From contig JYFJ02001944.1 of the NCBI GenBank assembly GCA_000934665.2, forward strand, positions 1 to 64,000: DNA of 64,000 nucleotides, given 5' to 3'. The notes beneath the pieces were generated by a model. It made no database searches. It saw nothing but the letters and a program-made list of their open reading frames with translations, and was not told the DNA's origin. The translations under genes were made by a program, and so were the position numbers. Shown one piece after another: positions 3,374 to 61,268 of this stretch (positions are counted from its first letter, which is position 1; each line of letters opens with the position of its first letter). Origin of the DNA: Catajapyx aquilonaris. Taxonomy: Eukaryota.

Positions 3374-6300
3374 TCAATCTTCATCATCCTGACCAGACGA
3401 CGAACCCGTCTGAAACCCGCTTCTGATTCCAAAGCTAGGGTTCGGGTACAGGCGATCATACACGTTACGAAACATGACTTCTGAGGTGCTTCCGTACATG
3501 GGCCGACCTGGAGGTGTCGCCTGTGTCGCAGCCGCCAGTGCAGACGGAATGGACGGCGTCGTGGCCATGACCGCCCCTTGTTTCCTCCACTTCCTTCGAC
3601 GACTCCGGTAGAACAGAAGAAACCCTGCGGCCACGCCTAAGTTGGCCATCATCACCATGGCGATGCAGGCGGCTAACGTAGACTTGGGTGTGCACACGTA
3701 GTCTGGTTCGACTGCATCGGGTATGTCCGGCATAGGCTGACCGTCCGGTGCAAGTCGGACAGTCGGACGGGACGGAAACTCGTTTGGTAGCATGTCTTCG
3801 CCGACCACTAGTTTGAGCTGGAGTGGTAAGGACTCCGGTACGTCGTTATCAGGTCGTTGCGTTGTGGTCGAAGGTACGGTGCTGCGTAGCTCGGTCGTGG
3901 TTTCCAGGTCGTTACGTGGTGGGTCGTACCTGACATCGTGTGGAAACCATGTGTCGTTGGGCTGCTGCCAATCAGGTCCGGAAGCTCCCAGTTCAACCAC
4001 ATCCGCTTGTACTTCCGGTTCGGATTCACCGCTACCTTCAATGTACGGCGGCACTGTCGTCGTGGTTGTCGTAGTCGTCGTTGACATTGTTGTGGTCGTC
4101 GAAGTGGTCGTTGATGTGGAAATGGTGGTGTCTTCCACCATATCTTCCTCAGTACCATTCACGGACCTTCGTCTTCGTCCGAATGAATCACGTCCACCAG
4201 CGCACCGTACCGGCTCGCATATGTCCTGACAGAACTGTACGGTCGCAACAAAGTGCACCACAGAAGTGGATGGGAAACGGAATGCCTTGAAGTACGTAAT
4301 CAGTGAGCGTGTACCCCTCTCCAGTTCCAACGCAGGGAATATTCCTGGATCTCTCGGACATCTGAAACACAACGCAATCAGTCAATTGCTCAGTACCGTA
4401 CTGACATGTATACATACCCGATATTGTCCAACAACGTTAGAAGCTCCCCGTTTTCAGTCCTGGCTTCCAGATTCCGGACAAAAATTCCAAAAGCTGAGAG
4501 AGGATCGATGTCTATTCGAAGTATGAGTTCTTCTCCTAGTCCAACGGTGACCGCGTCTTCACCTGACCTTAGAAGTATCCGCATCCGTACGTTCGGAGCA
4601 GGTGCAGTGTTGGTCACCAGGTTTGTGTCGGACGGACGGAACGGTACGCTGGAAATAGGTACATAAGTTAAGGTGTTCAACTTACGGTATGGGCGACCAT
4701 ACTTGACGCTGATTCCTCCACCGTCTTGATGCCTGGAACCTCCAGGGGAGTACGACACGGTTTGGTCCGCTGCATCGAATGAGCATTCGACTCTGACTGT
4801 CTTGTCCGTTTCCTGCATGATGACCGGATTCTGCTGGACCACAACGTGGTTAACATACTTGCCTCGTCCTTGCTGCACCGTGCCGCATCGTGTACCCAAC
4901 GGTACTCGCAGCACAACCTGGTTCTGTCCATCGCCCATTTCAAAACATGCCTGTGGGTTACCCGTTGCAAACACACGACCTTGGAATCCGGTACCGAAGA
5001 AGATGGTCACCAGCATCTCCGATTGGGTACACTCAACTCGTACTGAAAATGAGACATTGTCATCAATTTCGTCAGACAATACGCACATTGGTACTTACCA
5101 TTGTTGCAGCTTCCTCTTTCGCCATAGAAGAAATCGCGGTCTATGGGCAATGAGTTTCGGTCCTTTTCGGTACTGTAACTGTCGTCACCGGTCAACAGAC
5201 ATTCTCGTCTGTACTCGTTGAAGTTGAAGGCCCTGCACTTGAAGTCCCGTTCCTCCAGACATGCCCGTTTGCAATCGTCGGCGGAGAATACTCTGGATAC
5301 CATCTTGTCCGCATGGGGCAAGAACCGACCTGGAAGATCCATGAACTCACACTGCGGTGGGTCCTCAGCACAATCGTTCTCCATGTACTCCACATCCGGA
5401 CCTGAACGACGGTAGCTCTCGGGTCTGGTACGACGTGTGTCTGGACTCATCCTGCACAGTCTTTCTCTCGGGTAGTACGTAGCTGACCTGCATGGCATAC
5501 GTGCTTCTCGGATACATTCGGTCAGACACTGCAGACGGTGTAGGACGTTGGGTACTTCGAAGTCCGAGTTTCCGATGTTCTGCAGCTCGTACCCTGGTAC
5601 TCTCGTGCTGACCCAACCTTTTCCGCATCCACGTTCTGCAATACAATTTGATTAGGAAGGAGCCAAAGCGAAGATACCACCGGCATATCTCTTCGGGGTC
5701 ACGGGAGAAACACAGGAGGTCACACCAGTGAACGTACGTACCTCTAAGGCAGACCTTCTCGAAGTGCACTAGTTCGGCCGCCGGTTGCAGGTCAGACCGG
5801 TCCATCAACGACGTTCGGTCCACTCCGTAGCATCTCTGCCGGTACCCTCTGACCGTCTCGACGCTGACGCCCATGCATCGCTCACCGAGACGCTCGCACT
5901 CTCTGAGGCACTCCATGGTCAATCCGATGTCCGCCGATGTCCGTAACGCTTCACGTCGTCCACCGTTGTACGTGTATCCGACCACCTTTTCGTACACGAC
6001 CGTGTTGCGGCATCGGTCTGGCGAGTAGTCGCCTTCGAGATAACCAGGGAACTGGTCTGGGTATCTGTCAGGGAACCTGTCCGGATATCGATCTGGCTGC
6101 CGATCTGGGTAGCGATCCGGGTACCTCGGACGGTCATTTGGAGGGTACAGATGGTCTGGTCGTAGAGGTCGGGTCGGGTACTTGTCAGGTCGAGGATAAT
6201 CCTGATTCGGGTACTGGTCCGGGTACAAAGGACGTGGGTTCGGTGGGGGCCGGTACGGATCAGGACGAGGGTAGTCAGGACGAGGGTACTTTTCAGATGG

Positions 6301-9300
6301 ACGTGGGTACGGATCTGGTCGTGGGTATGGGTCGGGGCGTGGGTATGGGTCGGGGCGTGGGTACGGATCGCGGTCTGGAGGATACCCAGAATCGGGTGGC
6401 AACCCGGAGCAGTCTCGTTCGACAGACACAGCTCCGGTTAGAAACTGGTGCGAATTACCACCGCTGGAGAGGGTATCGCCGCTCAGTAGACACGGACGTC
6501 CTTCCAGTACATTCTGAAAAAATACGCCATAAGATCTGTGAGATACCAAGTGTACGGTACTACTTACCGTTCCCAGGAAAGAGTACGACCTGCATCGGAA
6601 CGTTCGTTCTTCGTCGCAGGCTCGCTGACAGTTGGTTTCACTGTATGCACCCACAGCTTTGGTGACGTACACCAAACGACGGTTTTGCTGCTGGTGACGG
6701 TACACGCATCGACGTGGTTCTGCAATTGTCGAAAATTACACGTGAAAAATTGTTCAAACTCCGTTAATACCGCAAGCAACTTACGAGGAGAACACTGGTT
6801 TTCAAGGTAGATCATGTCCGCTGTTGCAACGTACGCTTTTGGTAGAGTGTACTTATCCTCAGTGCACAGACGACATTCCCTCCGTACAATGTCGTAGTTA
6901 GCTGCCCTGCACATAAACCTCCTTTCCTGCAAACACCTGTCCGCACATTCGTCTTTGGTCACACCACGGTAAATTTCACGTTCTGAATCCTTCATCTGGA
7001 AGTTCGGTATGGCCTCGAACGACCACAGCAGTCCACATCCTCCTCCTGTCAATTACAATGTTAATAATAACACATCGTCATCATTGAGTCACACGTACCT
7101 TTAAGACAGACTCCTTCGTAGTACCCGACACCGGTGCTTGGTCTGAGCCCCGTTTCGTCCTCTCTCGCTGCCTGCTCCAGTGCGACACACTCGTTCCTGT
7201 TGTAATCCAAGTTGAATGCAGCGCACAGAGGCTCACTCTGGCATCGTCTTATGCACTGCTCCACAATACCGTTCTCAGTTCCTCGTCCGAACAGCGGAAA
7301 AGTACGTCCGGTATGAAACAGTTCGTATCCAGTCACCTTTATAAACTCCAGTCGACCCAGCTCGCATCGGCCGACTGAAATTTTTGGGCATTAAACCAAA
7401 TGTCTTAGTTGAAGAGTACAGTACGTTACCTTGAGGATCTGTCCCTCCGTTGAACGGCCTGTCTGGATAGTGCGGTCCTTTTCCGTTTCCGCTTCCGTGT
7501 CCGTTCCCGTTTCCGTTTCCGTTTCCGTTGAACGCCTGGCACACCTTCATGAAGAGGTCGGTGCCTGGACGGTTTTGCTGTGAACTTTCGCCGGCTGACA
7601 CTGCAATAAATGTAGGTTTTACAGCAAGATTTTTTTGGCATGTCGGGGATTTTTTACGTAAGTCGGGATCTACGTAAGTCGAGACTACGTAAAGCAGGAT
7701 CTATGTAAGTCGAGACTACGTAAGACAGGATCTACGTAAGTCAAGACAGGATCAACGTAAGTGGAGGCTACGTAAGTCACGATCTATGAGACTACGTAAG
7801 TCAGGACCTACATAAGTCGAGTGTACGTAAGTCCGAAGTTGACTGTTTTAGTGTTTTTTTTTTGCCGCTTCCTTGAAATCATGGTTGTTGTTGTTGCGCC
7901 CGATGTCTTTCATCCTGGAAGCTGATCGTCCCTGCGTACAAGTGTGTCTTACGGGTTGCTCTGAATAGTCAGGATAACAACTTGGTTGCAATTGCATTGA
8001 ATGAGAGTGCGTCCGAGTGGGTGCATGGGCAAAGCCACATTAACGTTCGTTAGCCTGGGGGGCCACAAAACGTAATACAATACTGAGCGGTTATATATCC
8101 TACAATAAGTGTACCCACCTATGTCGTCGCTTGACAAGAAGCATTGTCCTCCGGTACCGTGAAACGCAGCAGACCTGCAGTGAAACTCCCTGTAGTCGCT
8201 GCACCTCCTCTGACACATGACCTCGTCCGTGACCGGAGTGACCACTGCCTCCAGGTACCTCGGATACGCGTTCTTGACCGTCATGAACCTGCATCGTGGG
8301 TCAGCTTCGACACACTGATTCTCTAGGTACTCCGATGACATGGGTGCGTCGGTGTATGCATCTGGACGTGACCTCCGATCCTCCCGGTACAACCTGCACT
8401 CCGTGGTGTCAGTCTGGTAGTCAGCGGACCTGCACCATCGCTCTCTCAAACAGGACTCCATACAATCGCGTCTGCTGGACACCAACGGAAGGGTACGGTC
8501 AGCAGGCATCTGCATCCTTTTCCCAGGACGTCGCTCGAAGGCCCAACCGCGACCTCTGCACTGCGGGAAGTGACCTCTCAGACATATCTTCTCAAAGTAG
8601 CTTTGACCTTCTCGGGGCACCAGTTCTTCTCCACGACCCTGCGAGTTCCGGTCCAGTTTGAGGCACCGCATCTGTCCGTAGTCCATCATGAAGGCCGGAC
8701 AGTCTGCTCCACCGTCCAGGCACTTCTCGATGCATTGTCTTATTATGCCCAGAGTGGACGGACCTCCAGCAAGTGTACTCTGTCGTGCTGACCTAAGAAA
8801 GTGGCTGGACACCTTCTCGAAAGTGAAGGTCCCTCCGTCGCAATTCGCTGAAAAATCAAACACGGTATACGTAAGTCGAGTATACGTGACTCGGACATTG
8901 CCTGATTTTGAGTACATAAATGAAAGAAAAAAGTGTTTCAATAATTCATCAGCGTTGTCAACTTGTCACTGTGAAGCATCCTGCACTGTTCGTATGAGGT
9001 CAGTTGCTGACCTACTTGACCGTTGGGCCGTCACGTTTTTCATTCTGACTTACTGTTAGCGCACATGAGTTCGCCGATGACCGGGTCCTTCTTGTGGGGT
9101 ATCTGGTTCGCCAGGTACGGTCCAGGTCGGTTCAGCAACTTGTCTGAACTCAGGTAGCACCGGTTCTCTTCTTCGACATACTTGTACGCCAGACATGGGA
9201 AGGCCCTCGTCTGAAACAATGAGTTCAGTACCTGGCAAGTTTGTGAGATGTTGAAACACATACCTCTTTGCAGAGTGTCTCACAGTCCTTCATGGTAGCT

Positions 9301-18800: not shown

Positions 18801-19639
18801 TCATTTGGAGGTGGCAGGATATGGTGACACACTTTTTTGCACGGTCGGTCAAATTTTTAGCGAATAGTTCGCAAATTGTAATGTCAACATCGATTGAATT
18901 TTTTCCTATTGCAATGTGTGTCGAGATCGATTTTTTTGCGAATTAATTATTGCAATATCCAAGCCGGGATCGATTAGATTTTTTTTGCAGATTTTTTTTT
19001 TGCGATATGTGGCTACACATTCTTTGTGGGGGATAAAAGATTTGGCCTTGAGTCGAGGTTGAGTGAGGAAAAAGATGGAGGCAGAGGAATTCAAGCCGCT
19101 TTTGAGACGGAGGAAAAATGGTATTATTTTTGGAGGACCGTCTTAATTAGAGTAATTAATAGGCGGGTATATAAGAAGCAGGGTATGAGTACGTATGAGT
19201 ATGTGCTGTAAGGTGTGCATGAGCATGAAATTAACATTAAATAATGAGTGAAGTATACTATCTGTTTGCAAAAATATTGCCAAAACAATTGCAAACTACT
19301 GTCAAAATAATTGCACACAGTATAGCCAAAATAATCGCACACAGTATTGCCAAAATAATTGCACCTGGTGTACTACATGATCATTGCAAACATTATTGCA
19401 AAATGCATTGTAAACATTATTTCAAAAACTGCAGGATTGCAAAATTTATATTGCACTAGTATATGCACAAGTCAGATCCAACATGACAAATTTGCAGCAT
19501 GTTTTTTTTTGGCAAATTGCAAGCACACGAGTACATCCGCATCATGGCTTATTGTTATGTGGCTATATGCACATTTTTGCACTGATACGTACAGCTTGTA
19601 ACGAGTGTTTTGTTGGCAGATTGCAGTGAGGATGTTAAG

Positions 19640-20682
19640 ATGACGAGCGATGAGCAGCCCTTTGAAACCGAGGGTTTCGTTACAGTCAAGGGCATACCGA
19701 CACATGTCGTGACATATGGGAAGTGGATTGAGGATGACTTGGCCGGAGTCGACTCGCTCGTGTTCGTACTACCAGGTAAGTTCACGAAGCATGGTAAGTA
19801 CCAGGCACTAATATGTGCTGTTGCAGGCAATCCGGGGCTGGCCAACTACTACAAGATGTTCATGCACACGCTTCATAACAAGACGGGCGGTATGCCAGTG
19901 TGGGCAGTGTCGCATGCTGGACATAAGAGGCCGCCATCGGGACTTCCATTTGGCGGTAAGTACGTGGCAGTATATTCAGCGAGATCATGTAATAATTTCA
20001 TTGTCCACTAGAACGTCGGAGGATGTATGGATTGGAAGACCAGGTACGCCATAAGCTGGACTTCATCTCGGAGTATGTACCCAACCACACCCGTATCCAT
20101 CTTGTGGGGCACTCCATCGGTTGCCACCTGGCCATCGAGATTGTGAAGCGCTGCTCCTCTACACGCCTCATATCACGCAGCTACCTCCTGTGTCCCACCA
20201 TCGAGTGGATCCGGGACACTCCAAATGGACGCAAGGCAGCCATCCCCCTAAAGTACCTTCGATGGCTTATCTATGTCCTGGCCACTGTCGTTTCTGCACT
20301 TCCTGACAGCCTCAAAATGTCTGCTATTCGGTGGCACTTTGGCTCCAAGTCTGTGTCCGACGACTGCCTTTCCGCTTCAGTCGAGCTCATCCATTGGTCT
20401 GTATTGAGTAACGTGGCGTACATGGCATACACCGAGTTTGAGTCGGTTACCAATCTGGACGTGGATGCCCTTCGAGCGTACGGCGACCGGTTCTGCTTCT
20501 TCTACGTCAAAGGAGATGGTTGGTGTCCACTAGCCATGCATCAACGGCTGATCACCACGCTTCCGGATGTTCATGCGGTTGTGAGCGACGAGGGACATGA
20601 CCATGCGTTCGTACTGCAGCCGTTGTCAAGCCAGGATATAGGTGCGCTTGTGGCCGAGTGGATACAAGAGTCGCACCCATAG
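19640..20682 (+). CDS. LDAH: Lipid droplet-associated hydrolase (alpha/beta hydrolase)
   Basis: Exons 19640-19775, 19827-19955 and 20012-20682. Spliced motifs LPGNPG, HAGH, LEDQVRHK, nucleophile elbow GHSIG, PTIEWIRDTPNG, DGWCP and HAFV match the LDAH family. Confidence 0.92.
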
Positions 20683-21960: not shown

Positions 21961-24900
21961 TCATGCCCTCACCACCTGCGTGCTACTGCGGTGGGCGTTA
22001 CCCCTCTTCAGCCCGTTCCCAACTGGCGATACGAGCTGCCCATGAGACCTGGTTCGGACGCCAAGAGACCCCCAATCCCGTTCATCGGTGCCCCGTCTGG
22101 GCGCCCTCTTGGATAGCAGATCCGGCATTGATCCGGAGGGAGCTACCCTGCTGCGTTTCTTAGGAGTCGGAGTTGCTGTGTCACCGTCCTGCAACAGCAC
22201 ATCAAGGCTGCGTTTGCGGCTGCGGCGTGGCTGGGAGCAGCGGCGGTTCTCCTTCTCCGGTTCGGGCTCGGGCTCCTCGGCAATGGCTTCCGGCTCAGGC
22301 TCCACTGTGCAATCCTCCTCTTCCTTCTGGTTTGGTGGCGCAACCTTCCTGAGAGCAGCCAGCCACTGCTTCTTGCTGTGCTCGCTCAAGGCAACAAGTG
22401 TGTGCGCTTGGCCAGAGATTCCGTCCCGGAAGGACACACGGAAGACGTTTTTGGCTGAAAGTGATGTTGCGTAAGCTAATTGAATGTCTGCCACATTTAA
22501 GCACACTTACTGCTCTGTCCTCGTGTAATGGCAGTCCGGAACGAACCTGCCTTCACCTGCCCGTCAGGAAGGTCTTCCACTACCAGCTGAACTTTAGGTA
22601 TAGGCTGCCGATACACTTGGTAGCACTTGCCAGGGACACGAGTCGATGCACGAGTCAGCACCAAGCCCGAGTCAAACAGGAAGAGGTGCAGCTTCTGGAA
22701 GTGGAAGACAAACTTAAGCATTGGACGACGCTCGTATGCCATTCTCAATCCAATTCGAAGTGGACAGGATACTCACGGTTCCTCTGCAGTTCTTTAGCGC
22801 TCCGGAGCACTCCAGCTGGCTGCTGTTCTTTGTCCACCATTCCTCCTCAGCCGTTGCTCCAGCTCCTCGGGAGTCATCCTCCCCACCCCCAACGAAATCC
22901 ACCTGCCGCAAAGCTGCCCTGCACTCCGCCTCTCCCGTCTTCCTGTCCACCGCCGAAATGATCTCCTCCATTTCCTCTATTGCTTTCGAAAGTATCTCCT
23001 CGTCTGGATGGCCAGCAGGCGTGTACTTTAACATCTGGCGGACAAGAATCGGATACTTGACCAGCCGCGATCTCGGTGCATCCAGAAAGGTCCACAGGTC
23101 CAGCTTTCGACTGAAGGGGGACTCGAGGCATCGGAGCAAGAAGTCCTCCAGGCGATGATCCTCGACCTTCTTGCGATCGAGCAATTCCTTGGCCCGGATT
23201 TGGTTCGAGCAGTAGGAGGTGTAAATGGCAAGGTGAGGCACCCATGAACGAATGGCAAGTCCAACTTCGGAGGTCACACTTGTGACGGGGTCACGGAGAG
23301 ATATCAGCGCATCGCGGAGGTGCTCATGCACTTGCTGAAGGGTCGCCAGGTCGCCAAATATGTCTTGAACCTGACCAGAGATGACATTAAGACGAGACAG
23401 TGACGGCTGGATTTATTAAGTGAAGCCGTTACCATTTTCCAAACCACTGAGTCGCACAAAAGAAAAAGAGAGATGTGCATTATGTGTTCACTACTACAAG
23501 TTCATGCTAATCATCATGCACTTATAAAAGGAAACGACGAAAGTAACAGTACAATTTCGCTTCAATTCGTCTTTTCATCCCAAAACTTCAACCTCTTGAC
23601 ATGTTTGTTTGTAATGTACTATCAGCGCGGAAATGGAACAGACACTTGTCAGCTTACCCCCAAGTGTCCGCACCATTCCCGCACCGATAGTACACTTGCT
23701 AAGCACCAGGCAATCATGCAATCGAGACATTACCTCTTGCTCCGTGAGTATCCCAAACTTGAGCAGAGTGCTGGCGTACGTCTCCTGCACCATGCGCAGG
23801 TCTTCAATGGTGTCAGATTCCCCCGAAGCTAGCTCGAAGATGGCTTCCTGGCGCTTCTCTTCCCTAGGGGTCAGAGATGGCGGCGGGGGAAGGGAGTTGT
23901 CCGACCCAATCCCTTTTTCTTTGACCAGAGTGGCCCAGTTCCTCTGTGGCCGCTGCCTTGCTGGAGTAGGCGGGGGTGGACGGTAGGGTGTGACGGCCGT
24001 GGTGGACCGACGCCATGTGGCGCTGGTGCATCTGCGCATCTCGGATGGGGACCCAGCAGGTGAGTTGGTGGTGCTGGCTGGCGCTGGAGGAGCAGCCAAC
24101 TCGGAAGGGTCAGGCCGGTTGCTGTGGCGGGAAGGAGCGGAGAGCCTGGAGCTGCTCATGGTACGCTGGTGGGGCGAAACAAACCAGTCAGTGTGACCGT
24201 TGCAACTGCAAGCTTACAAGTACTCACCATGATGCGCTTGGGAGTGTTTTTAATGATGTTTGCAAATGAGTTGACCCTCGAGAGGGCCTTCTTCTGATTC
24301 GGAAACATGTCAGGCCCAATGCTCAGGTCCAGCGACTTCACACTCCCAGCGTCGCTATCCCTCCGACGACGCTTCCTCTGTAACATTGAAAAAAAGAAAA
24401 ATGAGCTCACATATAGTCTAATTACACAGTTGCAGTCAGTGGCCATCACACTATTGTACATGTAAAACATTTTCAAAGACTGATATCCTGTTTTCCGTCC
24501 AGTGTCGTCTAACAGCACCCATTCTTACTGCCATTACTACGTGACACTGCTTAACGCACGGTAGTTGAACACTGATGCCTGCTTGGAGACAACGAGATGG
24601 CCGAGTCCTTTCCGGGACTAAAGTTCAAAATCCAAACCGTCGCTTGTAACTTAAAACCCGCTTCGTGGTGAGTCATGTTTTCAGCAATGATTCTGCTTTT
24701 ATCTACCCACTGCGAGTGTAATTTAAACCTCTCATTTTTGAAAAGTGATGACCAATCTGGGAACCTCGTGCTGGAAACACATGAATAAGGGAAGACAGCA
24801 GCTGCCAAGACTCTGATGGTGCACCTGACGAATTGATTAGCAAACATGAACGCCCTCAGGTCCTCCTCCAGTTAATCCAAAATTAGTCTTTTTCTGCATC

Positions 24901-31110: not shown

Positions 31111-32085
31111 CAGTCAATTGCCATTGATCATATGACACCATTTCCCACGGACTGCGTATTTTGCCAAATTTTATGATGATCAAAATAATAACTACGTTTC
31201 TAATGGATATGGAATGATACATTTTAATAAGGTATAACCTGTGTTCATATTAATGCACAAATTTGGAAAGTATAGGCAAATTCTGAAATAATAACTTATG
31301 TAGTTTGTTTTAATTAGATTTTTAACTTAGAAAACATAATTATATGCTTTATTAATTTGGAAGATGAGCCATGCACATGTGCGTGCCCATGTCCGTTAGA
31401 CTTAAATATATAATGTCACTCTCATTACATTACTTCAGGTGTAGAAATTGATTACCATTGCAGTGTTGCACTATTCTTCATTATCTCAAAAATACCAGGG
31501 GTGGAGTGGGGAGATAACACCCTGTGTGTTCACCCTTCTGTTATCAGTTGCAATCCTTTACCTATCCACCATGGCCAGTTGAAAATAAGTGCACTATTAT
31601 AGACCTGTTTTTAACTGGCCACGCTATTCACATAGTGGCAAAGAGTGAACTTGGGTCATGTGCACCTTGCAACTGCTGGCTACCTCATACAAAGACAAAA
31701 CTGTGAAGGGAATGAAAAATGATTCATTAATAATAACAGTACCACTTCTTAATGAAATAATGTCAGCAGCCCACATGTCACCAGAAAGATTATACAAAAT
31801 CATAATGTGTTTGACATGCATGTCAAATAGACAGTAGTATAAAACTTTTCTTTTTTGAGTTCAGCTTCATGCCTTACATTATTAGTTTCACCTCGATGCA
31901 TACAAATAGCCCACACAAAACACCGCTGATGGACCAATCTCAGCAACTTCAACAAACCACTTGCAGCAAATAGTACATTAATTACTACGTACTGTTCCTT
32001 CTGACTCATTTGAATATAAATATGATTGAAACAAAACAATTTCCGGACAGTGCAATATTTCATTTGGGTGAAAAAGCAATAAAGG

Positions 32086-32779
32086 TCAACTGATGAGGAA
32101 AGGTTGAACAACACCAACGACAAAAGGGATGAAGATTGTCCACACAGCAGTGAGGAAGATTGCCACTGTAATCGTCACAAGCACATCTGAAGAACGGATT
32201 AAGGAAACGTCAACTGGATTATCTTACATCGTTATCTCTGGATGTGTTGAAATTATAACACGTCGGTATCCTGTGACTATACTGGGAATTTAATCTAGTA
32301 GAGTGTGTGTAACTTATAGTAAGGGCTTATACTTATATGAACGGTAGCAAAAGTCATTACATAACCTAATTATTATAATAATTAATAATAATATTAACAA
32401 CAACAACAATAAAATTTGTGCACAAAGAGTTGTAACTTGCAAAATTTATCACCCTTGTTATTAGTTTTGATTATTTGTACACCATGAATATACTATATGA
32501 CCTCACAATTATTTTGTGTAAGGATACTGACAAGCTGCTGCTCCCATGGTTCCAAAAGATCGAAGGCGAAGATGAGCCCGTACATCAGATAGATTCGCGA
32601 AATCTTATTCGACACATAAGTCCAAACTTTGCCAAATTCTTCCCAACCGGAAACGCTGGCGATCGCTCCAAACTGGACCACTTTCTGCAAAAAAAAAATC
32701 TGCACATGAACATCAGTCGAAAAATTTCACTTTTCCACAATAATATTCAAATTTGCAAACTATTTTGGCAAACCTCCAT
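32086..32779 (-). CDS. Serine palmitoyltransferase small subunit-like protein, copy 1 (~87 aa)
   Basis: Exons 32779-32774 (ME, tentative), 32684-32528 and 32186-32086 give ...SRIYLMYGLIFAFDLLEPWEQQLVNVLVTITVAIFLTAVWTIFIPFVVG...; the LEPWE motif followed by a TM helix is the ssSPT signature. Confidence 0.8.
32187..32527 (-). other. U12-type (minor spliceosome) GT-AG intron
   Basis: Donor GTATCCTTAC, branch site TTTCCTTAAT at 32207-32198 about 10 nt before the AG; splicing restores the frame. Confidence 0.88.
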
Positions 32780-34217
32780 GATCCAGCTACTTTCCCAGAG
32801 AGATCCAACCAGAGACTGAAATGCAATCGAGACAATCCTGTTCATATATATCGGAGGGGGGAGGGGAAAGTGGGTTGATGTTACTATCGCAAGATTACAA
32901 TCCGGAACACATGCGTCATCATGACTTCAGGTCGCGATTATTCCAACAGGAAACCGAAACTAATCGTGTACTTCTCCTTACGTACGTTATTTTGCGACAT
33001 TGCATTCCACTCTCGGTGTCAACGTGCGAATTCTTAGCGAGAAATATTCGCCAGATGTAGCTGGAACCTGGCAGGCGATGGAAGTGTCGTAGGCTGTATC
33101 CACCACTAAATGCTAACACTTTGGCATTTAAAAATGTTACGTACTCGTGCAATGTACCATTGCAATGACCTGTCTTTCATCGTGGAGGACATCGCTCGAT
33201 CTCTTGAACCTTTTTTTTCTGACAACAATGAGTTGCCTTCGTTACCATTATTTGTTTGGAATCGGACGTCTTGCAAATCTGGCACTTTCTTATTGGCATC
33301 AAATTAATATTCAAAAGCACCAGTGTATCGCAGTACTCGGAACGACTTTATAACCTTCTTTCAAATCAGGTGGGTATTGTCAGCCTTATTGTTGGCTTTA
33401 AAAAAAATTTTAAGCAAAACAATGCGTTGGTTTGCAGCAATGTCCGAAGACGACCGAAGAGTGACCTCGAGTTTGAGCGAAGGTCATTTGGTTTCTCCTC
33501 TTCCTCTTAGCAGGATGTCCACTATGTCTACAGGGTCAGTATTATTAGACTAATAGGCAGGGTCACAGCGTACGGTAATGGAGATAATATTATGTTAACA
33601 TAGCACCGGTTAATCAAATGGAATTGATAGAGATTAGATTAGTTTGGAGTAGTTTGTTAAGAGCGAAACTATGTTTTGCTTCAACTAGAGAAGTGTACTG
33701 TACAACCCTTTAATATTATATTAGTTGAATTATTGTAGTTCCCCAATCTGTTGTTAGTTCTGTTTTTTTTTGGAAGCACTCTCCTCCTTCAGTGAGGTCA
33801 ATATTATTATCGAAGATTTTGGCACCAGAAACAGCAAAAAAAAAAAGTTCTCCAAAAGGTACAGTAGCCTAACTACACCTACATAAATACCTGATACCAG
33901 TAGTCTGAAGGAGGCATGATACACTAAATGTCACAAGAGAATCCTCCGACATATCCGACGTATCATCCTGACACTTTTGCCAGCGAGTTCTGAGTCGATA
34001 TGCAATCCAAAGACACAATATTCTGTATATTATTACACACACATTCATTCTGAAGACTATAAACATGGTAGAGCCAGCTGCACAATTTTTTTTGTTCCGA
34101 TTGCTAAACTGGTTTATTGTACTCAGCAGGTGCAAGTCTTACGATTTGCGACACAAATGAGCGCAACTCGTATGATTTTTTTTTCCTTGCAGGAATGACT
34201 ACGTATATGAAAATATA

Positions 34218-34263
34218 GGGGCCATAACATCATGTACTACTCAGTACATGATGTTATGGCCCC
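34218..34263. repeat. Hairpin with perfect 21-bp arms and a 4-nt loop
   Basis: GGGGCCATAACATCATGTACT-ACTC-AGTACATGATGTTATGGCCCC. Confidence 0.92.
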
Positions 34264-35004
34264 CATAATGCATCGTCATATTTGACATAATTATAATTGC
34301 ATGTTTTGCTACGTCCATGTCAAATACATGACTACATACAGTATAACACATGACGACACATTACTACACATAACTAAGCGTCAACTATCGCTGGTTAATA
34401 ATATTGTTAAATCACAAATATTTATATGTCACTGGTTCGACATAAATGCGCTTCTTACATATACAGTATTTTTGTAAAATTAATTCAGATATACAGATTT
34501 CACAAAAATCTTTAATCTTAATTATTTTGGGTTTTTAATTAATTGTAATAGATTATAATAATACAAAATATGATACAATATACAGGATGTCAAATACACA
34601 ACACTGTGTACGGGTTTCTTTTCACAGTGACATTATTGTGTGTGATTATAAATATTTAATCCGTAGTAATGTAACAAAATTTATTTTAGAGCGACATTAT
34701 GGCAGGTTTAATCAATCGATTTTAAAAAGAAACCAGACACTCTGAAGAAGTGATAACGCAATCTGCAATTATTTCAGATAATATGATTATTTGATATTTA
34801 GGCGTTGCTACAAAGTTGAAAGAAAATAATGGAAAATTTTGGTGCAGGATTTTTCCTAGTGAAGATTACATGACACATTTTAAAATACTTCAATTAAGAT
34901 GGTTTTCTGTGAAGTTTTCTGTAGTGCACACGAAACAGGAAATAATCCCGTTGGAAAGACGCACAGTAGAGAGATAATCACAACATCAGAAAATCTCGAA
35001 ATCG

Positions 35005-35413
35005 CTACTGATGACATGCAGGCCAAAATGAGCCGAACCAACAGATCGAAGTATAAGTTTTCCAAACAGCTGCGGCGAAGATCACTAATAACGTAAACGC
35101 AATCGAGTCTGTAACACAAGTTAAGGAAATGATCATTAACTATAGCATGGTCATCAATTTCATTTTTTTTTGGGGGGGGGGGGGGGNGATGACGATAAAA
35201 TATGATAATGATGATAACAGACGAAGAAGAAGAAAAATCCGTAAGGGTACCAATAAGATTTTGCTCCCAGGGCTCCATGAAATCGTGACCTACGATGTGC
35301 CCGTACACTATCCAGATCCGCAGAATCTTCTGCGACACCTTCCCCCACAACTTTCCATCAGCTTCCTCATCACAGCATCCGGAAGTGCTGGCGATGGCTG
35401 CGTTCTGGACCAT
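35005..35413 (-). CDS. Serine palmitoyltransferase small subunit-like protein, copy 2 (~88 aa)
   Basis: Exons 35413-35251 and 35108-35005 give MVQNAAIASTSG...KILRIWIVYGHIVGHDFMEPWEQNLIDSIAFTLLVIFAAAVWKTY...; it is paralogous to copy 1 with the same intron position and phase. Confidence 0.78.
35109..35250 (-). other. U12-type intron with a variant donor
   Basis: Donor GTACCCTTAC (T to C at +4), perfect branch site TTTCCTTAAC at 35129-35120, AG at 35110-35109. Confidence 0.8.
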
Positions 35414-36599
35414 TATTTCCTACAAAGATCCGATGAATGGAGCTCAATAATATTCTCACTCGCGTTTCACTTATTCCCCATTATGCCTTACAAATTTGTA
35501 ATATATTATTTAAAAATCATTCTGGAGAAACTCCGTGCCCGAAAGAGCGTCGCCTGAAACTAACATTCTTCTGACCACAACATGAGTGCCGGCTGGTTGA
35601 ATTACCGATTCTCATTTTATTGCCTCAATCAGGTGATGCAAGCCATGAATTATTACGATTTGCGACATCCCAAAGCAATCACCTGAATTGCTCTATGCCG
35701 CTCGTACAGTCTGCAGGAATTGCGTCACTAGGCTGTGGCATGCCTGCAACCTGGATGTAACACGACAATGACGGTCGCAAGCACATGCACCATGGACATG
35801 AACAATTTTTTGTACTGTACTAGTACAGAAAATTGTTCATTGTCCCTGTCGCCAGACTACGACACTTCAACAATACAATGTTTACATCTGTGTCAATCCC
35901 ATCTTTTTCTTTTTTGTTTCGAACTGGACGTGTGTGTGTTACAATCCAAGCACTGCAGACCACATCTAGTGCTTCACACGTCCACACGTCCACTTGACTT
36001 CTTACAATCCAACGTCGAGTCAGGTTTGAAAGTGAGGTTTTCTCAGGATATCCCTTTGATGGAAAACATTTTTCTTTCCGTTCAGTGTCAACAATCTGTC
36101 ACATTTTGCCGTTACCTTGCAGGTCCTTGCAACCCGAAAGCGACCCGATTCAACCAGAACGTGGCCGCGAAGGTGACACACTAAATCTCTCACAGCAAAG
36201 CGACTCATCGGACGACGACGCAATATACGCGTGAGATACCGTATACTATACAGTATATATTGTAAAGTCATTTTTTTCGCATCGTATAAGTTGTGATGTC
36301 GCGGGTTTTTTTCTGGTTCACCGAATATACTTTAATGAAATAAGTTGTTGACCTTACCCACATGAACTTTGTGACCTTATAATCACATTTTTTGGTTGCA
36401 GGCTCTCTCCTGCATGCGGAGACGGCGGCCCGTCCACGACTCCAGATCCACTGTCCAACTCCGACCTCTCAAACGAACTCAAAGGCAGCACGTCAGGGTC
36501 AGTGTCGTTGCGTATATCATTTAAATTTTTGTCAAATTAAAATATTGCGTATCATTTCTGCGACCGATACCCATTGAAAAAAAGCTCGTCCGCAGGTAC

Positions 36600-42318: not shown

Positions 42319-44698
<2,380 letters not shown>

Positions 44699-61174: not shown

Positions 61175-61268
61175 TGCCCCAGGTGAGGCTCGAACTCACA
61201 ACCCCGGCATAGCTCAGCAGCATACTGACTTATAAGTACCGTGCGCTAACCGATTGCGCCACTGGGGC
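61175..61268 (-). tRNA. tRNA-Ile(TAT) with a 20-nt intron (61230-61211)
   Basis: GCCCCAGTGGCGCAATCGGTTAGCGCACGGTACTTATA[intron]ATGCCGGGGTTGTGAGTTCGAGCCTCACCTGGGGCA; stems and A/B boxes are intact and a TTTT terminator lies just downstream. Confidence 0.96.

Follow-up and report, generated by a model that had tools for sequence, protein, structure and literature searches.

What becomes of a minor-class intron when the small gene that carries it is duplicated? This question is raised by a 64,000 nt stretch of contig JYFJ02001944.1 from Catajapyx aquilonaris (assembly GCA_000934665.2; hereafter the window, in which position 1 is the first letter), where two paralogous genes lie in tandem on the minus strand and each is interrupted by an intron with U12-type features. 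The sequences of both copies point to ssSPT, the small subunit that activates serine palmitoyltransferase (SPTSSA/SPTSSB family, Pfam PF11779). On the evidence set out below, we consider it probable that these ssSPT paralogues have each kept an ancestral U12-type intron, with the donor of copy 2 weakened and its intron probably still spliced by the minor spliceosome.

Both introns retain their U12-type signals

Each intron is a phase 1 GT-AG intron that begins four codons after an EPWE motif. A preliminary description, made from the letters of the window, had placed the pair in this way, and the reading of the minus strand and the translations agree with it. The parts of the two genes on which the argument depends are the following.

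32528..32684, minus strand: copy 1 pre-intron coding exon, encoding KVVQF...LLEPWEQQLV and the first base of an Asn codon
32187..32527, minus strand: copy 1 U12-type GT-AG intron, 341 nt, phase 1, starting GTATCCTTAC
32518..32527, minus strand: copy 1 donor, GTATCCTTAC; base -1 is A (32528)
32198..32207, minus strand: copy 1 branch site, TTTCCTTAAT; its two As (32200 and 32199) precede the last intron base by 13 and 12 nt
32086..32186, minus strand: copy 1 terminal coding exon, encoding a hydrophobic helix (maximum hydropathy 2.52), stop TGA at 32088-32086
35251..35413, minus strand: copy 2 first coding exon, ATG at 35413-35411, ending ...FMEPWEQNLI and the G of an Asp codon
35109..35250, minus strand: copy 2 GT-AG intron of U12 or 'minor-like' type, in phase 1; its assembled length is 142 nt, including the N at 35187
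35241..35250, minus strand: copy 2 donor, GTACCCTTAC; base +4 is C (35247) and base -1 is G (35251)
35120..35129, minus strand: copy 2 branch site, TTTCCTTAAC; its two As (35122 and 35121) precede the last intron base by 13 and 12 nt
35005..35108, minus strand: copy 2 terminal coding exon, encoding a hydrophobic helix (maximum hydropathy 1.93), stop TAG at 35007-35005

The donor of copy 1 begins with GTATCCTT, an exact match to RTATCCTT; the sequence across its exon-intron junction reads TCA/GTATCCTTA, and that across its branch site reads GTTTCCTTAAT. The codon split by the intron is AAT (Asn) in copy 1, where the downstream exon begins at 32186, and GAC (Asp) in copy 2. As had been described, the copy 1 donor is canonical and that of copy 2 has drifted, at least as assembled, and each copy has a U12 branch site close to the AG. 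In both copies the distance from branch A to AG is 12 nt if the second A is taken and 13 nt if the first is taken. Both distances fall within the 11-13 nt given as the optimum between branch site and 3′ splice site for U12 introns (Turunen 2013). Furthermore, the phase 1 position of both introns fits the reported bias of U12 introns against phase 0 (Moyer 2020, PMC7367187).

The pattern TTCCTTRAY has only two matches on both strands of the window, and these are precisely the two branch sites. The number itself is ordinary (the mean in shuffled sequence is 3.32); what stands out is the exact placement of the matches at both introns. GTAYCCTTAC occurs twice in the window where 0.15 occurrences are expected, a count of 2 being reached in 2 of 100 shuffles. 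U12 introns are expected to lack a distinct polypyrimidine tract. The pyrimidine fraction, read from these two introns by themselves, is 0.45 in copy 1 and 0.55 in copy 2 from -40 to -21, and in the last 20 nt, in which the branch site itself is included, it is 0.80 and 0.70, respectively. Assignment of both introns to the U12 type is well supported by the donor, the branch site, the 12 nt spacing, the phase and the comparison with relatives given below. A scan of the window gave no convincing further U12 intron (a donor at +44788 would need to span an open reading frame) and no third copy of the gene is present in the window. An Rfam scan of the window found tRNA only, and hence no minor snRNA within it.

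A direct comparison of the two introns indicates which bases have been held in place. The donors are identical at 9 of 10 positions, as are the branch-site blocks; the terminal CAG is identical at all three positions and the spacing is the same. The ungapped intron flanks match at 17 of 67 positions, which is the random level, and the introns no longer align. For the 18 matches among 20 signal positions, P is approximately 2e-9 at the flank rate and 5e-4 to 4e-6 at rates based on synonymous divergence (dS), all rough values from windows chosen after looking. The genes themselves are old duplicates (exon 1 dS 0.74; overall dS 1.24; exon 2 saturated), with a ratio of nonsynonymous to synonymous divergence (dN/dS) of 0.42-0.49. 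Because only the splice signals are conserved while the flanks have been randomised, the comparison points to selection that retains these signals in both introns. Of the arguments at hand, this is the best one that a working minor spliceosome would have acted on both genes for a long time. The signals have outlasted a synonymous divergence of at least 0.74, and so the proposal of the preliminary description that the organism retains this machinery is a fair inference.

An ssSPT gene family with a known minor intron

The preliminary description gave the intron pair correctly. However, it named no gene and missed the G at -1 of copy 2; as the gene went unrecognised, so did the prior cataloguing of its intron. 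The copy 1 exon peptide matches PF11779 with E = 0.004 (17.2 bits), and a 28-amino-acid core of this peptide has PF11779 as its sole Pfam match (E = 7.4e-4, 19.5 bits, profile positions 2-27 of 54); only unspliced pieces of the window copies were used in these scans. When the copy 1 core was searched against the PDB, the only two matches were both 'Serine palmitoyltransferase small subunit A', with weak E values of 0.5 and 0.94, and aligned the core to residues 13-35 of a 71-residue chain. In the ESM Atlas, the top three clusters carry PF11779 for copy 1 (0.88, 0.87 and 0.84) and for copy 2 (0.89, 0.85 and 0.84), scores that serve as leads only. Searches with the copy 1 exon peptide by a word-based homologue method and searches of NCBIfam gave no match.

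A family profile was built by script from six spliced metagenome gene models and searched against 535 targets. The spliced window proteins rank first and second, with E values of 1.3e-6 for copy 1 and 1.5e-5 for copy 2. The next two targets are minus-strand open reading frames (E = 3.8e-5 and 0.024), which we take to be the unspliced exon 1 reading frames of both copies; all other targets have E > 0.4. The paralogy of the two genes is evident from their exon peptides, which are 55% identical (tblastn E ~1e-12). Between the copies, 35 of 84 aligned residues are identical. The predicted proteins have at least 85 and at least 88 residues and consist of the EPWE core and a single C-terminal membrane helix, recognised by hydropathy. 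Residues Y35, E45, P46, W47 and E48 are the same in all 13 sequences of the alignment. From these comparisons we regard the family membership of copy 1 as sound in its own right and that of copy 2 as sound through paralogy.

The small subunit activates the SPTLC1/SPTLC2 heterodimer, raises serine palmitoyltransferase activity more than 100-fold and sets acyl-CoA preference (PMC6148460); in the window copies such a function is predicted only. The residue of acyl-CoA specificity, Met25/Val25 in the same source, was not used, as its numbering could not be placed on our alignment. A HMMER search of 1.84 billion representatives returned a sole match, to a BTRD1 repeat protein, which we rejected as spurious because it resembles only the stretch SGWEEF.

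The Minor Intron Database table of Olthof 2019 (PMC6717393, supplementary file 1) already lists a minor intron for SPTSSA of both species, human and mouse, in its row 162, with the 5′ splice site TCAGTATCCTGT and the branch site GTTTCCTTAACC/T. SPTSSB has no occurrence in the same file. The introns of the window resemble the human/mouse SPTSSA intron in protein family, in GT-AG subtype, for copy 1 in an exon that ends TCA before GTATCCT, and in a branch site of the form GTTTCCTTAAC/T. They also have the codon position in common, as judged via a vertebrate-like metagenome locus whose exon peptide is nearly the human sequence and matches the PDB SPTSSA chain; in this locus (L038) the peptide ...EPWERTVF is followed by A and then by GTATCCTT. 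In contrast to human and mouse SPTSSA, the gene is here a tandem duplicate that keeps the intron in both copies, with -1G and +4C in copy 2, and the introns are 341 and 142 nt long rather than 26.8 kb (human) and 9.8 kb (mouse). We found no rows for SPTSSA or SPTSSB in the supplements of Moyer 2020, Olthof 2024 and Larue and Roy 2023, in files that are possibly partial, and no main text among those searched links SPTSSA, SPTSSB or the small subunit with minor or U12 introns.

To look more widely, metagenome contigs were scanned for EPWE codons followed by 13 free bases and RTATCCTT, a pattern that fixes phase 1 by construction. Among the 55 loci recovered, 43 have an upstream open peptide of at least 20 residues and the other 12 were too short to scan. 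PF11779 is matched by 22 of the 43, with E values from 1.7e-13 to 5.6e-4 and with GTATCCTT at the common codon position, and 14 of these 22 half-domains reach the Pfam gathering score. Each of these 22 matches stops at profile position 27-28 of 54, where the exon also ends (that of copy 1 stops at 26-27), and the alignment of these relatives with the window copies likewise ends flush at the exon end. The 22 loci reduce to about a dozen distinct peptides. Six of the 22 loci also carry a U12 branch site, placed 11-15 nt before an AG, and a hydrophobic exon after it. For the U12 intron in orthologues that the preliminary description had left to be looked for, the catalogued human/mouse SPTSSA intron and the U12 donors of these 22 loci match in position. 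Judged by these likenesses, the window introns are orthologues of the catalogued SPTSSA minor intron, and the intron itself was already known in the family. The 21 remaining scanned loci are not ssSPT; the pattern matches unrelated genes by chance (L010, L041, L028 and L037, with a Hint domain and a 2Fe-2S ferredoxin among them).

The altered donor of copy 2

A tree built on the 39-column core joins the window copies as sisters (100/99), a hint only given so short an alignment, and the branch of copy 2 has a length of 2.26 against 0 for copy 1. The two copies also have in common an N-terminal extension that is absent from the other 11 aligned sequences. Because they are sisters and share this extension, the duplication appears to be lineage-specific and copy 2 to be the derived copy; the tree is a hint that copy 2 evolves fast. 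As assembled, its donor departs at two positions. The base at -1 is A in 16 and C in 6 of the 22 relatives and G in none, and copy 2 has G, so that the split codon reads Asp at a residue that is Asn or His in 22 of 22 relatives. At +4, a U can base-pair with an A in U6atac and forms a wobble with a G in U11; a C in its place should help U11 and hurt U6atac.

Reads bear on these two changes differently. The contigs compared here come from DNA of one sample in three runs (X1, X2 and X3), as the listed pieces; an X5 contig spans only 31700-32119 and ends within the copy 1 last exon. None of these contigs joins the exons at either predicted junction. These DNA contigs confirm the branch site, the acceptor, the -1G and the +1G of copy 2. 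The branch site lies within contigs at 34993-35186, and an X1 contig at 35250-35654 covers the first exon with 0 differences. The listed pieces of each of the three runs stop at 35186 and 35250, and the +4 C (35247) comes from the assembly alone. The intervening stretch is the following.

35187..35249, no strand: intron 2 from the N at 35187 to donor base +2, outside the listed read contigs

Contigs at 34913-35186 have about half of the neighbouring depth (8-13 versus 30 in X1), so that two haplotypes probably differ over the last exon and intron of copy 2. A 9 nt insertion variant is present at 34910, beside the half-depth region 34913-35250, and the read contigs also contain an in-frame 3 nt deletion at 35367, in the acidic stretch of copy 2. 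Were intron 2 retained, no stop codon would be met within it and the frame would run on past its end, as part of a 179-residue stop-to-stop open reading frame (34880-35419, minus strand).

The explanation we prefer is that a U12-type GT-AG intron ancestral to the family would have been retained in each paralogue after the duplication. Copy 1 would be a textbook minor intron. Copy 2 would combine a weakened 5′ splice site (-1G and +4C) with a U12 branch site that matches the consensus perfectly, at 12 nt from the AG; because of this branch site, its intron would most likely still be removed by the minor spliceosome, perhaps less efficiently. That splicing is carried out by U11/U12 and U4atac/U6atac, and that the copies differ in efficiency, is what we infer from these signals, and we judge it likely that the copy 2 intron still belongs to the minor class despite its weakened donor.

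Several observations weigh against this explanation. Both copy 1 half-domain pieces (17.2 and 19.5 bits) score below the Pfam gathering score of 29.8, copy 2 alone gets no Pfam match, and PDB searches with whole exon 1 peptides, with the copy 2 core, and with two-sequence and core profiles returned no SPTSSA. The metagenome scan demanded a U12 donor, so it gives the presence of such introns in relatives and not the frequency of U2 introns there. The copy 2 donor, GTACCCTT, agrees with RTATCCTT at seven of eight positions and so falls one base short of it. In the human/mouse table, GTACCCT is the 5′ splice site in only two rows, human MYO1F (score 57.7) and VPS41 (score 59.5), compared with 853 GTATCCT and 342 ATATCCT strings, of which a few are in branch-site columns (PMC6717393). 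These two introns (rows 283 and 774) have a +4 C as in copy 2 and are still catalogued as minor introns, and the mouse orthologue of MYO1F has GTATCC, so that a drift from T to C took place there too; they differ from copy 2 in that their 5′ splice site scores are low, their branch sites weaker and their genes unrelated.

A further body of evidence concerns -1G itself, and bears on an alternative in which the copy 2 intron is a 'minor-like' intermediate between U12 and U2, handled mainly by the major spliceosome, while copy 1 stays minor. A -1G raises U1 affinity and opens the conversion from U12 to U2 as a first step (Moyer 2020, PMC7367187, citing Burge 1998 and Dietrich 1997), and Table 1 of the same paper holds an orthologous pair of donors, GTATCC (U12) and GTACGC (U2). 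Moreover, -1G minor-like introns were unresponsive to inhibition of the minor spliceosome (Olthof 2024, PMC11347168). Copy 2 resembles the introns of this model in joining a near-consensus minor 5′ splice site and a strong branch site to -1G, and its G, found in none of the 22 relatives, its +4 C and its long branch would all fit such an origin. The model stresses phase 0, whereas the copy 2 intron is in phase 1, where the change at -1 costs an Asn to Asp replacement, and its class is here a prediction from sequence. Against handling by the major spliceosome, TTTCCTTAAC is a perfect U12 branch consensus located 12 nt from the AG and containing the CC that, in a strong branch site, recruits the minor spliceosome (Olthof 2024, PMC11347168). 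In addition, TTG/GTACCC matches a U2 donor only from -1 to +3, without a G at +5; the region upstream of the branch site appears to have no pyrimidine tract (pyrimidine fraction 0.55 from -40 to -21); and the downstream exon begins with A rather than G. We consider this alternative unlikely. A related proposal, which we think rather doubtful, is that copy 2 has been caught in the midst of conversion after a lineage-specific duplication, having gained -1G and +4C while its branch site stays perfect. If that were so, the neighbouring copies would form a natural matched pair for the effect of -1G and +4C on spliceosome choice and on the output of ssSPT as a rate-limiting cofactor of lipid synthesis. 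The suggestion of the preliminary description, that copy 2 may splice less efficiently or be converting towards the U2 type, gains from the -1G and loses from the perfect branch site at the best spacing.

Two other explanations were weighed. The +4 C might be an assembly error, a gap-filling error or a variant of a single haplotype, the copy 2 donor being canonical in reality: the 63 bases at 35187-35249 lie beside the N and a C13/A9 run and lack support among the listed contigs of the three DNA runs, and the half depth at 34913-35186 suggests a haplotype difference. However, no alternative letter at 35187-35249 appears among the listed contigs (which is not proof), the remainder of the 10 nt donor is intact in the assembly, and -1G is an independent departure, confirmed by the contig with 0 differences; we regard such an error as improbable. 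That copy 2 is a decaying or silent duplicate, with splice signals that are mere relics, seems to us very improbable. Its long branch, the lack of any Pfam or PDB match to copy 2 alone and its Asp in place of the Asn or His of every relative would agree with decay. Yet its open reading frame is intact from ATG to stop and includes the hydrophobic helix, dN/dS between the copies is 0.42-0.49, the splice signals have been kept while the intron flanks were randomised, the 3 nt indel polymorphism in its exon (35367) is in frame, and the family profile recovers it with E = 1.5e-5.

Gene anatomy, neighbourhood and significance

The coding exon of copy 1 upstream of the intron (32684-32528) is preceded by an acceptor AG at 32686-32685. 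Because this acceptor is present and no in-frame ATG precedes the conserved core, copy 1 needs an upstream start exon. There are 21 candidate combinations of ATG and donor, using 10 different ATGs. Two further features of copy 1 are listed here.

32774..32779, minus strand: one of these candidate start exons, putative only, ATGGAG, followed by an 89 nt intron to 32685
32501..32506, minus strand: cryptic U2-like donor GTGAGG, 21 nt inside intron 1

The cryptic donor is in frame with the intron 1 acceptor, and its use would add seven residues. Contigs from each of the three DNA runs have A in place of its G at +1 (plus strand, 32506 C>T), so this base is polymorphic or differs from the assembly. 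The contigs of the DNA runs have no change in the donor or branch site of copy 1, and they contain an Asn/Lys difference in its exon (32607 A>C, plus strand). Retention of intron 1 would lead to a stop after 11 codons. Within this intron, at 32276-32419, which contains TTG and ATT runs, summed contig depth is approximately 1000-2500 versus approximately 30 nearby, and at 32996-33139 it is approximately 150-220 versus approximately 30; both are repeated or low-complexity sequence.

Two near-perfect hairpins centred on GTACT..AGTAC are found nearby, one between the two genes (34214-34267) and one approximately 385 nt upstream of the copy 2 ATG (35798-35840); their arms are 25 nt and 96% complementary, and 19 nt and 95% complementary, respectively. 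Neighbouring genes were named by Pfam. They encode a lipid-droplet associated hydrolase (19586-20682, plus strand, E = 7.9e-49), a RhoGEF (22714-23412, minus strand, E = 1.7e-28), a tyrosine kinase in two exons (42362-43585, minus strand) and a PAN-domain protein (3374-8965, minus strand) with a weak cuticlin-like N-terminal CUT_N match of 21 bits, below the cut-off of 27. This set of neighbours agrees with an animal genome. Rfam also reports a tRNA at 61175-61268 (minus strand, 53.5 bits), which at 94 nt against a 71-position model is perhaps intron-bearing; ARAGORN reports none there.

Sphingolipid synthesis begins with the reaction of serine palmitoyltransferase (PMC6148460). All that is fresh here is that the two donors form a matched pair and that the intron is so broadly conserved in a very small gene. 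The practical value is small: the window adds an invertebrate-like example with two copies, and its canonical and -1G/+4C donors could be used to probe the class-conversion model. Minor introns are rare and slowly spliced. That one of them has been kept in so tiny a gene from vertebrates to this animal, and in about a dozen other lineages, suggests that it is kept for a reason. As a speculation, the intron may couple the output of ssSPT to the activity of the minor spliceosome.

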